A stretch of DNA of 45,939 nt from Promethearchaeota archaeon. GTDB taxonomy: Archaea > Asgardarchaeota > Lokiarchaeia > Sigyniarchaeales > SOKP01. The DNA is taken from contig JAEOTS010000057.1 in assembly GCA_016839745.1 (NCBI GenBank), forward strand, positions 1 to 45,939, read 5' to 3'. Of the stretch, positions 11,054 through 45,939 are shown one piece after another (position 1 is the stretch's first letter; each line of letters opens with the position of its first letter). The notes beneath the pieces are model-generated. The model did no database searches and was not told the origin of the DNA. It saw only the letters and a list, made by a program, of their open reading frames with translations. The position numbers and the translations under genes are program-made.

Positions 11054-11158
11054 GCAGATGTAGCCTAGCTGGTAAGACGCCGGCTTCGAGAGTAATACTT
11101 AATTTCCGTTAAAGCCGGTGCGCGTGAGCGCTCGGGGGTTCGAATCCCTCCATCTGCG
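11054..11158 (+). tRNA. tRNA-Ser(CGA) with 22-nt intron at 37/38 (11091-11112)
   Basis: Acceptor GCAGATG/CATCTGC with G discriminator; anticodon stem CCGGC/GCCGG; anticodon CGA at 11087-11089; long variable arm GCGC-GTGA-GCGC; T arm GGGGG-TTCGAAT-CCCTC; CCA not encoded. Confidence 0.93.
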
Positions 11159-11597: not shown

Positions 11598-12530
11598 TTA
11601 TTGAATTAATTGTAGAATAATAGATTCCATTTGTGCTTTAGCTGACTCTAACTTGTTTAAAACTTCCACCGTTTTTTCTAGATCCTCTTCGTCCTCTTCG
11701 ATAATGAATAATAAATAAAAATCTAAATTCCCAAACTTTAAGCTTTCTACTAAACCAGAATATCTACTACCATCTTCAAATTTATCTGAAAATTCTAAAC
11801 GCTTCCTATTTTCTGTTATTATTTTTTTTTGGGCTTCCAGATATTTATCGTAAATCCGTATTTTTTCTACTAAATGCAAATGTGGTTTATAATATTCCCC
11901 AATTGTTATACCTTTAGAATCAAAGAGAGCCATCAAAATCGAGTTGTAATTTTTACTTATTCTAGAAAACAATCGAGAAACCATTTCCATTTTTTCAAAC
12001 AATAACGATAACCCTGATGAGAAAGCATCCATTATTGACTTAATATCGTAAATTGAAGTCTCAAAGAAAAAAATATCAAAATCATGACTGTACCTTATTA
12101 GAGCATGCTTTATCGTTAAAATCCTCTGATTTATTACCTTTTCTTTTGTAAGTTCTGGATCAAACTTATGAAAAAGAATACACAACGGAGGGTATTCTTG
12201 ATTCTCCTTTAAGAAAAGTAAAATTTGATCGAGATAATCTATCGTCTCAACATAGCGATCGTAATCTTGTGCATCAATAACATAAAAGAGTAGATCAGTT
12301 CCGCTAATGTATTTAGTAGGATTTTTTAAATACTCTTCTCTATATTGTAATTGTCCTCCAAAATCCATTCGAGTAAATTCAATCCCTAAAAATTTAAAAG
12401 CGTCGCGAGCAATTTTGCGTGTCGGCATCAATTTTAGGATCTCTTGTTCGAAACCAAACTTTTTGGTGATAGCTGTAATTATGCTAGTTTTACCCGCATA
12501 ATCAAGCCCGATAAAAGCAATTTTCTTAAT
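11598..12530 (-). CDS. Rag/Gtr-like small GTPase with C-terminal roadblock-like domain; probable ATT start
   Basis: Extending the frame upstream of 12431 recovers the P-loop IAFIGLDYAGKTS; G3 DFGGQ, G4 HKFD, G5 TSIYD; C-domain ILMALFDSKGITIGEY. In-frame TGA lies 3 codons before ATT at 12530; SD GGTGA 6 nt upstream. Confidence 0.85.
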   Translation of the reverse strand: MKKIAFIGLDYAGKTSIITAITKKFGFEQEILKLMPTRKIARDAFKFLGIEFTRMDFGGQLQYREEYLKNPTKYISGTDLLFYVIDAQDYDRYVETIDYLDQILLFLKENQEYPPLCILFHKFDPELTKEKVINQRILTIKHALIRYSHDFDIFFFETSIYDIKSIMDAFSSGLSLLFEKMEMVSRLFSRISKNYNSILMALFDSKGITIGEYYKPHLHLVEKIRIYDKYLEAQKKIITENRKRLEFSDKFEDGSRYSGLVESLKFGNLDFYLLFIIEEDEEDLEKTVEVLNKLESAKAQMESIILQLIQ

Positions 12531-12692
12531 TTTTAATCACCAGATCGTACAACCATGATCCCAAAATTTTCTTTAAAAAATGTCGGAAATAACTCTACAA
12601 AATATTTATAGTAGAAGGAATTAATAAATTCTTACTTTTTAGAGGAATATTGAAAGTGAAATTAAATTAGATTATTAATATCTATAAAAAAA

Positions 12693-34243: not shown

Positions 34244-34272
34244 TTATTGAGAAAACTATTAGGTGAACTCTA

Positions 34273-34794
34273 ATTTTCGACAAATGGTTGCAAGCGTTTG
34301 GAAAACTTGAGTATGTTCAAGCTAAATCTAGACCGAATGTTGCTTGTATTTTATGTTCAATTAAAGAGAACGACGATAAAGTAGTAAATTTAAAAATCTA
34401 CGAGGATAATATCTGTTTTGTAGTGTTGAATCTTTATCCTTTCAATCCTGGACACCTCTTGTGCGTTCCAAACAGACATATTACAAAATATACCGAGTTA
34501 ACGAAAAAGGAGCTTTTACATCTGAATAGAACAATTCAGGGTTTGCAACTTTTACTCGATGATTTGTATAACCCAAAAGGCTACAACATTGGAATAAATC
34601 AAGGAAATTATGCTGGGGCAAGTATAGACCATCTACATTTCCATGTAGTTCCAAGATATGGTACAGAGTTAGGATTTATTGATATAGTCAGTAACACAAG
34701 AGTTCTACCCGAAGGTTTAGATTCTGTGAAGAAAAAGCTAACTCAAAATGTTAATAATTTTCTAAACAAAGAATTTTTTGAAAATTTCAAGTAA
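34273..34794 (+). CDS. HIT-family hydrolase (Ap4A phosphorylase-like); probable ATT start
   Basis: CILC, NLYPFNPGHL, AGASIDHLHFHVVPR. SD GGTGA 34262-34266 sits 6 nt before in-frame ATT 34273; the listed TTG 34288 is the alternative. Confidence 0.88.
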   Translation: MFDKWLQAFGKLEYVQAKSRPNVACILCSIKENDDKVVNLKIYEDNICFVVLNLYPFNPGHLLCVPNRHITKYTELTKKELLHLNRTIQGLQLLLDDLYNPKGYNIGINQGNYAGASIDHLHFHVVPRYGTELGFIDIVSNTRVLPEGLDSVKKKLTQNVNNFLNKEFFENFK

Positions 34795-36511: not shown

Positions 36512-36603
36512 ATAAATGAAAACCAAAAAAAATCGAATGTCATAAAATAAAAGTTATGTTATATTATATTTTTACTATGAATATAGGAGGAGGTTAAACA
36601 ACT

Positions 36604-37161
36604 ATTTCATACCGGGGGAAAGTAATACTCTGCGGGAATCCCAAAGTAGGAAAAACTAGTCTACTAGCTCGATATGTGGACGGTAAATTTAACGAAGATT
36701 ATATTCCAACATATGGTGCGAATTTCTTGATTAAAGAGATTGATTTAAGTAAAACTGTTGACAAGCTTCAATTAGAAAATCTTGAATTGAAGAAGGATAT
36801 TAAAGAAAAAGGATTTAAATTATACTTCTGGGATATCGGTGGCCAGCAAGACAAATTATATAGTAATGAATATTATTTCGTTCAAGCTGTAGGGGCTATG
36901 ATAGTATTCAACTTAAATGATTTATCATCGTTCCAGGATATTAACTTTTGGCTAACTAAGTTGAAAGAATTAAGTGGTGATGTTCCATATATCCTTGTTG
37001 GAAACAAGTCTGACTTAGAAAGGAAAATTGATAAATCATTGATCGAAGATGAAGTAAAAAAGTTGGGAGTTCAATACTTCGAAACCTCTGCGAAGCTTAA
37101 TGAAAATGTAGACGCTGCCTTTGAAAGTTTATCCATTCAAATTTTGAATAATATAAAGTAA
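36604..37161 (+). CDS. Rab-like small GTPase; probable ATT start
   Basis: Upstream extension gives KVILCGNPKVGKTSL (P-loop); YIPTYGANF, WDIGGQ, LVGNKSDL, ETSAK. In-frame TAA at 36595-36597; SD GGAGGAGGT upstream of ATT 36604. Confidence 0.88.
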   Translation: MSYRGKVILCGNPKVGKTSLLARYVDGKFNEDYIPTYGANFLIKEIDLSKTVDKLQLENLELKKDIKEKGFKLYFWDIGGQQDKLYSNEYYFVQAVGAMIVFNLNDLSSFQDINFWLTKLKELSGDVPYILVGNKSDLERKIDKSLIEDEVKKLGVQYFETSAKLNENVDAAFESLSIQILNNIK

Positions 37162-41013: not shown

Positions 41014-43014
41014 TTGTCTGAAAAGCAGACCATTGATAAAATAAGAATAGGAGTTTACGTGTGTAGATGAGGAGTTAATATTGGTGCTCACCTTGATTGC
41101 GATGCCGTCAGAGATTTTGTTGAACCGTTACCCAATGTTGTTATAGCAAGAACAAATAATTTTACCTGTAGCGATCCTGGGCAACAAATTATTAAAAACG
41201 ATATCTTAGAATTAAGTTTAAATAGAATCGTTGTTGCAGCTTGCACCCCTAAGATACACGAACCAACTTATCGAGCCGTGTTAGTGGAAGCAGGGTTAAG
41301 CCCATATTATTTCGAAATGGTAAACCTAAGAGAGCATTGCTCTTTTGTTCATCAGGGAGACATGGAAAACGCAACAGAAAAAGCAAAACGTTTAGTTCGT
41401 GCCGGAATAAATCGAGCAAGAGAATTAGAAAGCGTTCCTTACAAGGAAATCCCCGTAGAAAGAGCTGCATTAGTTATTGGTGCGGGGATTGCCGGGATGA
41501 ACGCGGCATTAGACTTAGCAGAGCATGGAATACAAGTGTATTTGGTAGAAAAACAGGCTACAATTGGAGGGAAGATGGCTCAATTAGATCGAATCTATCC
41601 TACCGACGATTGTGGCATATGAGTTCTTGCCCCTATAATGGTAAACGCTTCAAAACATCCTAATATAAAACTATTCACTTATAGCGATATCATCGAGTTT
41701 AGTGGTATTACTGGGAATTATAATGTCAAGATTCGCAAAAATCCGCGATATGTTAACGAGAGTAATTGTACTGGGTGTGGTTTGTGTACTACCAAGTGCC
41801 CTATTAAAGTTCCCAATGAATTTTACAGCGGAATTGGCGAAAGAAGTGCGATTTACATCCCATTTCCCCAAGCAGTTCCAAAATACGCTGTAATGGATAA
41901 AAGCGTTTGTATTGATTGCAAAAATTGAGAACGCATATGTCCCGCAGAAGCTATTGATTTTGAACAAGAACCTGAAATCGTTGAAGTTAAAGTGGGCGCA
42001 GTGATTGTTGCTACGGGTTATGATGAATACCCGATAATTGAAACCAACGAATATAATTACGGGATTTATCCAAATGTTATTACTCAGATTGAATTAGAAA
42101 GCTTATTAAGCCCAATAGGACCAACTGGAGGTCATATATATAGAATTTCTGACGGAAAAACACCAAAAACTGTGATAATGATCCAATGTGTTGGCTCTAG
42201 GTCTTTAAAAGCCAATCCCTATTGTTCCATGGTGTGTTGTAATGTCGCTCTTAAAAATGCTCAATTATTGAAGCAAGAATATCCGGAAATGGATGTAATA
42301 ATATTTTACATTGACATTAGAACAACCGATAAAGGAAACGAGGAATATTATAGAACAATAAGGGAAGCTGATGTTAGAATGATTCGTGGAAAAGTAGGCG
42401 AAATCAACGAAGATAAAGATCATAATTTAATAATTCGAGCATATTCTTCTCTAAGTGGTGAACTACTTAAGATAAAGGCAGACATGGTGGTTTTATCTAC
42501 CGGAATGAATCCTTCAAAAGGGACTATGGAAGCGATCGATGTCTTAGGTTTAAGTAAAGGACCTAACGGCTTTTTAACCGAAATTCATGGTTGTTTGAAA
42601 CCTCAAGAAACTAAAAACATGGGTATTTACATCTGTGGATGCGCTGCAGGACCGAAAAACATTCCTTATTCCGTTTCTACGGCTTTAGCGGCTGCTAGTA
42701 AAGCTGCTGCGTTGCTCTCTCATAAAACCATTATACAAGAATTAATTATCGCTGAAGTAGATGAAACCTTATGCATAGGATGTCATAGATGCGAAAAATT
42801 ATGCGAGTATGGGGCAATAAGCGTTGATGAGAACGAAATCGCGATAGTGGACGAGTTAAAATGCAAAGGATGTGGAGTATGTATTTCTTCATGCCCAGCA
42901 CGAGCAATAGATTTGAAATACTATCGAGATAGTCAATTTGAGGCTGAAATCAAAGGAATCGGGGAAAGTGTAATTGAAACAATACCAAAAAAATCAACTA
43001 AAATCGAGAATTAG
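41014..43014 (+). CDS. hdrA: heterodisulfide reductase subunit A, selenoprotein with 3 Sec (666 aa)
   Basis: One frame from TTG 41014 (SD GGTGA) to TAG 43014 interrupted only by TGA at 41068 (VYVCR-U-GVNI), 41620 (PTDDCGI-U-VLAP) and 41926 (CIDCKN-U-ERICP), all Cys positions in HdrA; FAD motif GAGIAG, QCVGSR, CSMVCC. Confidence 0.95.
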
Positions 43015-45176: not shown

Positions 45177-45656
45177 ATGAGTTTAACTACAAGACCAAGT
45201 AACTTTAGAGAAAAAGTTTTCTTTAGAAAACTCAGATCGCAAGTGGATGGGAATGCTAAAGTAGAATACGGACTAACTCAAATAAGAGGAATTGGAAGAA
45301 GATTCGCTCAAGCAATAATCATGATCGCGGAAATCAATCCTGACATGAGAATTGGAGCAATTCCTGAGAAAGACTTGAATAGAATTGAAGAGATCATTTT
45401 AGATCCAGTAACAAGTGGAGTACCCGCTTGGATGGTTAACCGTAAGAATGACTTGGTAACTGGAGAGAACTTGCATATCATTGGAAACAAGCTCGAATTA
45501 TCGGTAAAACGAGACATCGATAGAATGAAACGTATCAGAAGTTATAAAGGCGTCAGACATCACCAAGGATTAAAAGTAAGAGGCCAAAGAACCAAAAGCA
45601 CTGGAAGACACGGATTAGTCGTTGGTGTTATTAGAAAAAAGAAGGGTCAACAGTAA
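45177..45656 (+). CDS. rps13: 30S ribosomal protein uS13
   Basis: GLTQIRGIGRRFA, PAWMVNR, SYKGVRHHQGLKVRGQRTKSTGR. Confidence 0.97.
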   Translation: MSLTTRPSNFREKVFFRKLRSQVDGNAKVEYGLTQIRGIGRRFAQAIIMIAEINPDMRIGAIPEKDLNRIEEIILDPVTSGVPAWMVNRKNDLVTGENLHIIGNKLELSVKRDIDRMKRIRSYKGVRHHQGLKVRGQRTKSTGRHGLVVGVIRKKKGQQ

Positions 45657-45667
45657 GGTGATGAAAA

Positions 45668-45939
45668 ATCGGAGATCCTAGAAGATTAAAGAAAAAATTT
45701 AAAAAACCAAAACACCCATTCCAAACAGAAAGGTTAGTTGAAGAACTCGAATTCCTAGGAAGATACGGTCTTAGAAACAAACGAGAATTCTGGAAAATGC
45801 GAACCATGTTAGGAAATTGGCGAGATATAGCACGAAAATCAAGATCATTACCTCAAGAACGAGCTACAGAAGTCCAACAAACTTTAATCAAAAAATTAGT
45901 CAAACTCGGCGTATTAGGTCCAGATGCAGGATTCGAGGA
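45668..45939 (+). CDS. rps4: 30S ribosomal protein uS4 (3' truncated); apparent ATC start
   Basis: Not in ORF track. ATC GGA GAT CCT... gives (M)GDPRRLKKKFKKPKHPF...YGLRNKREFWK, the conserved uS4 N-terminus, directly after rps13. Confidence 0.95.
   Translation, partial: MGDPRRLKKKFKKPKHPFQTERLVEELEFLGRYGLRNKREFWKMRTMLGNWRDIARKSRSLPQERATEVQQTLIKKLVKLGVLGPDAGFE

Follow-up and report, generated by a model that had tools for sequence, protein, structure and literature searches.

How translation of rps4, the gene for the essential ribosomal protein uS4, begins when ATC stands in place of its initial ATG is the question raised by the rps13-rps4 junction near the end of the window. The window is a complete contig of 45,939 nt (G+C ~31–33%) taken from the 3.5-Mb metagenome-assembled genome (MAG) of an uncultured Loki-type Asgard archaeon, an assembly of 192 contigs that is 89% complete, and the public runs containing the stretch are mostly marine sediment metagenomes. 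The upstream gene, rps13 (uS13; positions 45177–45656, forward strand), appears in the open reading frame list with an ATG start and the stop TAA at 45654–45656, and its product matches Pfam Ribosomal_S13 (E 1.7e-39). Direct reading of the junction gives CAG TAA GGTGA TGAAAA ATC GGA GAT CCT. The Shine-Dalgarno (SD) sequence AGGTGAT (45656–45662) begins on the last base of the rps13 stop. Within it, GGTGA occupies 45657–45661 and is followed by the spacer TGAAAA (45662–45667), and the proposed rps4 start codon ATC (45668–45670) begins six bases past GGTGA. The 5′ part of the rps4 coding sequence (45668–45939, forward strand) opens with IGDPRRLKKKF, translates as IGDPRRLKKKFKKPKHPF... and continues past the contig end.

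The rps4 frame contains TGA codons at 45659–45661, within the SD sequence, and at 45662–45664. The first canonical in-frame start 3′ of ATC is the ATG of codon 44. An out-of-frame ATG at 45661 opens a six-codon frame (MKNRRS and a stop; 45661–45681, forward strand), which is incidental. The sequence-only reading had placed the ATC behind GGTGA and six nucleotides at the Met of a conserved MGDP start, with an in-frame TGA two codons upstream and the ATG at 45661 out of frame; every one of these details proved correct when the letters were re-read.

The conserved uS4 N-terminus begins at this ATC. In alignments with solved archaeal uS4 proteins (MGDPKK; 9fhl_D, 4v6u_AD), residue 1 of the rps4 translation falls on Met1, and residues 1–85 align with residues 1–85 of 9fhl_D at E 3.7e-16. 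The 90-residue fragment in the window scores 20.3 bits with PF00163 (cut-off 23), and full-length uS4 orthologues carry both PF01479 and PF00163. The order rps13 then rps4 fits the archaeal rps13-rps4-rps11 cluster, with the rps11 side lying past the contig end.

Among 76 species-level public genomes, the rps4 codon aligned with Met1 is ATG in 57, ATC in 15 and ATA in four. Within 30 genomes of the genus and order, ATC was found in ten further genomes of the genus, ATA in two and ATG in the rest. Between GGTGA and the start, the ATC-bearing genomes carry eleven kinds of spacer (TGAAAA, TGCAAA, TGTAAA, ATAGAA, TAAAAA, TTTGAA, CAAAAA, TTAGAA, TTAAAA, ATAAAA and ATAAAC), which marks the run of five A residues and the adjacent ATG as accidental to the window's genome. 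The TGA of GGTGA stays in frame two codons 5′ of the start throughout the ATC- or ATA-bearing relatives, and for this reason an upstream start is impossible. With that stop on the 5′ side and a non-conserved ATG at codon 44 on the other, the frame holds no canonical start able to yield the conserved uS4 N-terminus.

In a tree built from uS13 and the uS4 N-terminus by a quick IQ-TREE search, the window falls within a clade of 12 rows that all carry ATC (SH-aLRT 99). Outside that clade are another two rows with ATC and four with ATA, one of the latter being sister to an ATG row. At least six changes among ATG, ATC and ATA are required by the tree (at least two or three separate ones on a lower count). 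On this topology the weak rps4 codon has arisen or reverted several times and been kept through considerable divergence. The compared species are related to one another and the species counts accordingly overstate independence. Taken with the alignments, the distribution indicates that rps4 almost certainly starts at ATC in the window's organism and in about 15 related species.

Codons 2–44 behave as coding sequence in the species with ATT, ATC or ATA (ATH) at the start. Directly behind the start, the ten residues GDPRRLKKKF are the same in all 20 ATC- or ATA-bearing rps4 genes. Over codons 2–44 of these genes, 178 cells differ from the majority codon synonymously and 74 non-synonymously, and variable cells number 75, 53 and 196 at codon positions 1, 2 and 3, respectively, a pattern indicative of purifying selection. 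Met44 is replaced by T, S or A in three of the ATH-bearing species.

These comparisons bear on three simpler accounts of the ATC. The junction lies in a MAG, where a homopolymer of five A residues adjoins the out-of-frame ATG; an assembly or sequencing error could thus have turned a true run of four (ATG AAA ATC GGA in frame), or a true ATG at 45668, into the deposited letters. The same ATC occurs in 14 other species, whose spacers (GGTGAATAGAA and GGTGACAAAAA among them) mostly have neither the A run nor the ATG. No insertions or deletions over the stretch were reported in four public runs, and a contig from an independent study (X6, record 20) covers 45608–45758 without any difference; contigs from a public RNA run (X8) cover parts of rps13 and rps4 outside the junction. 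An error is consequently a negligible prospect.

Translation might instead start at ATG 45661, with a programmed +1 frameshift or slippage of the polymerase on the A run restoring the rps4 frame, and ATG AAA A|AT C does look slippery. However, apart from the window, the spacer contains an ATG in only two of 19 ATC- or ATA-bearing genomes (L134 and L188), with TAA directly after it in L188, and the A run is not conserved. Five A residues are also few for transcriptional slippage. We give this route a very slim chance. The codon 44 ATG is what a gene finder restricted to ATG, GTG and TTG would pick, and the upstream part would then be untranslated. The protein sequence of codons 2–43 is nevertheless strongly conserved despite variable third positions, and the stretch aligns with solved uS4 from its first residue; since conservation extends over codons 2–44 and Met44 itself is not always retained, a shortened uS4 is not credible.

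The SD sequence is well matched. The 16S rRNA 3′ end was taken from four other genomes of the genus, as it was not found in the window's MAG. In those genomes it reads ..GGAUCACCUCCU, ending in ...CUGCGGCUGGAUCACCUCCU, and AGGTGAT at 45656–45662 is a perfect 7-base complement to it. The SD match reaches six bases or more in each of the 20 ATH-bearing rps4 genes, 13 of which have AGGTGAT itself. The 57 ATG-bearing genes average 5.2 matched bases, with 33 at five or fewer. Because the species are related, this difference describes a tendency and does not amount to a test; it agrees with what is described for Staphylococcus aureus, in which AUU and AUA starts always have a long, start-proximal SD.

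Three further genes in the window appear to start at ATT. The first encodes a Gtr1/RagA/Arf-like GTPase (11598–12530, reverse strand; ATT at 12530–12528) with the SD sequence GGTGAT at 12541–12536, five bases from the start, and Pfam profiles matching from residue 3. In the window the frame is closed by a TGA three codons before the start. At the codon aligned with Met1 the nearest species have ATT, one species ATA and one ATC; ATG, GTG or TTG is found there in other subclades. The second is a HIT-family gene (34273–34794, forward strand) with AGGTGA at 34261–34266 six bases before the ATT and an in-frame stop closely upstream. Most of the genus has ATT at the aligned codon, and some members have ATG or ATA there; a few relatives have an ATG one codon earlier or a GTG four codons earlier, and the in-frame TTG at codon 5 of the open frame is CTA, CTG or TTA in relatives.

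The third encodes a Ras-family GTPase (36604–37161, forward strand) with the SD sequence GGAGGAGGT at 36586–36594, nine bases from the start, and the Ras profile matching from residue 6. TAA stands in frame at 36595–36597, three codons upstream, and the first canonical in-frame start falls past the P-loop. ATT, ATA and ATG interchange at the aligned codon. A six-codon frame (ATG AAT ATA GGA GGA GGT TAA; 36577–36597, forward strand) lies in frame 5′ of this ATT and includes its SD sequence; its ATG is shared by no more than some close relatives (L102, L104), and the frame is probably incidental.

Codon alignment across species confirmed all four ATT or ATC starts claimed by the sequence-only reading (12530, 34273, 36604 and rps4), with ATT, ATA or ATC at the aligned codons of the other three, as ATC or ATA in rps4, in many species of the genus. 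It had assigned identical GGTGA plus six-nucleotide leaders to three of them, which are rps4, 12530 and 34273. Neither of the outcomes that it had named as refuting, a run of four A or ATG at 45668 together with canonical starts in relatives at all four loci, was observed.

A genome-wide tally was then obtained from the window's own genome, restricted to open frames with 100 codons or more and to codons at or before the first canonical start; the units are frames and not verified genes. GG-TGA-N6 was followed by ATA nine times, ATT eight times, ATC twice and ACG three times, compared with ten ATG, six TTG and two GTG. A/T-rich control codons were rare in this position (AAT 1, TAT 1). When the GG was dropped, ATT (46) and ATA (40) behind TGA-N6 were no commoner than AAT (40), AAA (50) or TTT (43). 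SD matches were also scored against GGAGGTGATCC with an aligned spacing of 5–7. At a match of at least five bases there were 215 canonical first starts and 84 ATH codons vs 37 expected (p 2e-9); at six bases or more there were 67 canonical first starts and 34 ATH codons vs 7.3 expected.

Near-cognate codons make up about a third of the strongly SD-led starts in this genome. ATH starts account for roughly 1.3% (excess) to 2.3% (raw) of open frames of at least 100 codons, a floor that counts strict SD matches only. ACG was enriched behind SD sequences as well (10 vs ~2 expected at five bases or more, 5 vs ~0.4 at six or more). CTG showed no enrichment behind SD sequences in the same genome (3 of 214). 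An SD match of at least five bases precedes only ~6% of first canonical starts, and most genes of this genome presumably start without one.

In two other genomes of the genus (0.8 Mb), ATH codons behind an SD numbered 18 vs 9.4 expected. Relaxed start selection, claimed earlier as systematic in the lineage, thus holds for the genome of the window and for these two. Across 1.2 Mb from two complete sister-family genomes, in which aIF1 has a canonical start, the count was not above chance (13 vs 15.6 expected), and the ratio of ATH to canonical starts was 0.17 vs 0.39–0.41 in the genus (p 0.009). With a looser motif, the first 400 kb of one sister-family genome (G032) did give an excess, 11 vs 2.7 expected. 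The genome G033 (53% GC) has too many chance open frames for the tally to inform. A link between an ATH start in aIF1 and genome-wide ATH use is suggestive only.

The initiation machinery of the genus was inspected for features that bear on such starts, as the sequence-only reading had proposed. The initiator tRNA was taken from relatives in the genus, as neither ARAGORN nor Rfam found it in the window's MAG, where 16–21 tRNAs were detected in all. It is an ordinary archaeal initiator (AGCGGGG...GCAGGG-CUCAUAA-CCCUGA...CCCCGCUA) with anticodon CAU, an A1:U72 pair and the anticodon arm GGG-CUCAUAA-CCC. A pattern search of 40 genomes of the genus found no initiator-like tRNA with another anticodon. 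Many copies of the gene contain an intron. In the genus relatives L329, L330, L333, L334, L335 and L338, inserts tens of bases long, presumably introns, split the initiator tRNA gene 3′ of the anticodon arm, and ARAGORN detects only the uninterrupted copy of L339. The window itself has an intron-bearing tRNA gene at 11054–11158 (forward strand; Rfam tRNA, 43.6 bits).

The gene for aIF1 (SUI1) in the window's own genome (contig C94, 32677–33015, reverse strand; locus L198/L299) starts at ATT. Its 5′ end has an in-frame TGA followed by AAA AAG AGT ATT AAA GAC GAC GAT ATT TGT, and no canonical start occurs 5′ of the SUI1 domain. Every one of the 18 genus genomes that yielded the gene has ATT as the aIF1 start. 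ATA stands there in two genomes from a second genus, which belongs to the sister family, and the remaining relatives use TTG, ATG or GTG. The leader of roughly 22 bases 5′ of the aIF1 start (TAAAGGTTGTGAAAAAAGAGT) is nearly invariant in the 18 genomes, far above the sequence further upstream, and could be a regulatory leader.

The reading that best accommodates these data is that uS4 is made from AUC at 45668 by an SD-anchored initiator Met-tRNA, as part of a genus-wide habit, and we assign it a probability of about 0.87. The 30S subunit would be held by the 7-base SD/anti-SD duplex (AGGUGAU) overlapping the rps13 stop, and this duplex would put AUC, six bases past GGUGA, in the P site. The initiator Met-tRNA (CAU) could then pair with AUC despite the third-base mismatch, and uS4 would most likely begin Met-Gly-Asp-Pro. 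The gene would be one case of a habit in which AUU, AUA or AUC, and sometimes ACG, stand behind a strong SD about as often as AUG, GUG or UUG do. In this genus aIF1, the factor that rejects wrong start codons, itself starts at AUU, which would allow a feedback like that of infC, with less aIF1 permitting more initiation at its own start. Decoding by Met-tRNAi, an efficiency below that of AUG and the setting of the level by aIF1 are parts of the scheme that we infer, and the feedback is proposed by analogy. The initiator tRNA and the 16S 3′ end behind it come from other species of the genus. In the window's organism an in-frame TGA can encode selenocysteine, which counts against the explanation.

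Two other accounts keep the AUC and differ in how it is reached or read. AUC might be used mainly by ribosomes that terminate at the rps13 stop 12 bases upstream and reinitiate, which is a variant of SD-anchored initiation rather than its opposite. The rps13 stop overlaps the rps4 SD in most relatives, and 40% of SD-led starts in the tally lie closely behind an upstream gene vs 13% of starts without an SD. ATH codons with an SD are coupled less often (27%) than canonical SD-led starts, however, and the ATT starts at 12530 and 36604 have their closest upstream neighbour ~150 and ~90 bases away. That ATH starts require translational coupling is not supported. As the main route to this particular AUC, reinitiation has an appreciable though minority chance.

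Alternatively, an isoleucine tRNA or a second, unusual initiator could read the start, giving a protein that begins with Ile. The start codons at the four loci are all isoleucine codons and the tRNA set of the MAG is incomplete, which leaves this idea some room. Against it are the canonical initiator tRNA of the genus, the failure of the 40-genome search to find any initiator-like tRNA with a different anticodon, and the enrichment of ACG, which is not an isoleucine codon. We know of no cellular precedent for such a start and judge it improbable.

Beyond initiation of rps4 by Met-tRNAi at AUC, a broader proposal can be put forward tentatively, as a possibility that we hold to be doubtful: start stringency in the genus may be lowered overall by a self-limiting aIF1 (AUU), with about a third of strong-SD genes, core ribosomal proteins included, tuned by AUH or ACG starts. 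If true, this stringency set by aIF1 would be an archaeal forerunner or parallel of eukaryotic eIF1-based control.

Weak start codons led by an SD are of a known kind. In bacteria, infC (IF3) starts at AUU or AUA with translational autocontrol, and E. coli pcnB starts at AUU (PMC4705826; PMC13009471 and its references 73–75). The genus resembles this system in that a weak AUH start is conserved, behind an SD, in the gene of a factor that polices start codons, here aIF1 with ATT. It differs in scale, a handful of genes per bacterial genome as against dozens that include an essential ribosomal protein, and in the factor, which is aIF1, a homologue of eIF1, and not IF3; autoregulation, known for infC, is for aIF1 a proposal. 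In S. aureus, AUU and AUA starts (infC, cvfC1, ccpN and citZ) have an extended start-proximal SD and give ~10–30% of AUG output (PMC13009471). Both cases pair a non-canonical start with a long SD placed at a short, constant distance; the four S. aureus sites were mapped by ribosome profiling, while the sites described here come from comparison and are far more frequent, at about one third of strong-SD starts.

The nearest description that was found is a methods note on the tubulin AtubA of a Kariarchaeaceae (Asgard) MAG, for which a 'rare ATT start codon' was proposed (PMC13394414). There too the deposited Asgard protein is too short, and an ATT behind a likely ribosome-binding site restores an N-terminal strand. 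That case concerns a single gene in another Asgard lineage and was not claimed as a lineage-wide pattern, of which no published description was found. Eukaryotes initiate at near-cognate codons and autoregulate eIF1 through its poor start context (PMC4705826; PMC3105428). AUU, AUA, AUC and ACG are used in both settings, and in each the gene for the stringency factor (eIF1 or aIF1) itself has a weak start; eukaryotic initiation, unlike that considered here, relies on cap-dependent scanning without an SD, and CUG, the best eukaryotic near-cognate codon, is not enriched in the window's genome. As far as was found, what is new is how frequent such starts are, and that both aIF1 and an essential ribosomal protein of an Asgard lineage have them. 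Weak-codon starts in these two genes suggest regulated start-codon stringency in close relatives of eukaryotes.

The consequences for annotation are mixed. Gene finders limited to ATG, GTG and TTG shorten such proteins: in the ATT clade of the GTPase at 12530, public calls are 304 aa (from Met7) or 276 aa, the latter without the P-loop, and ATG-bearing orthologues have 310–311 aa. The NCBI protein of the ATC-start rps4 from a relative, L140 (P0137), begins MGDPRR, so homology-guided annotation already accepts an ATC start. The expectation that many annotated genes are truncated or hidden was borne out for the GTPase; 'many' is a relative term, given the small percentage of frames concerned, and not all pipelines conceal such genes, as the Met start already assigned to rps4 shows. 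Because research on how eukaryotes arose draws heavily on Asgard GTPases and cytoskeletal proteins, wrong N-termini can mislead structure and expression work, as with AtubA (PMC13394414).

A fifth candidate ATT start in the window, at 41080, was rejected. In paralogues, a Cys of the CHCGxNI motif stands where this gene has an in-frame TGA, three codons upstream of the candidate; that TGA is therefore read as selenocysteine, and the gene as starting at TTG 41014. The gene encodes an HdrA-like flavoprotein/ferredoxin (41014–43014, forward strand) with in-frame TGA codons at 41068–41070, 41620–41622 and 41926–41928, all three likely selenocysteines. The paralogues that supply the alignment of the first TGA are from the same genome, and the third TGA replaces a Cys of the iron-sulfur motif CxxCxxCxxxCP. 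The TTG start lies behind AGGTGA.
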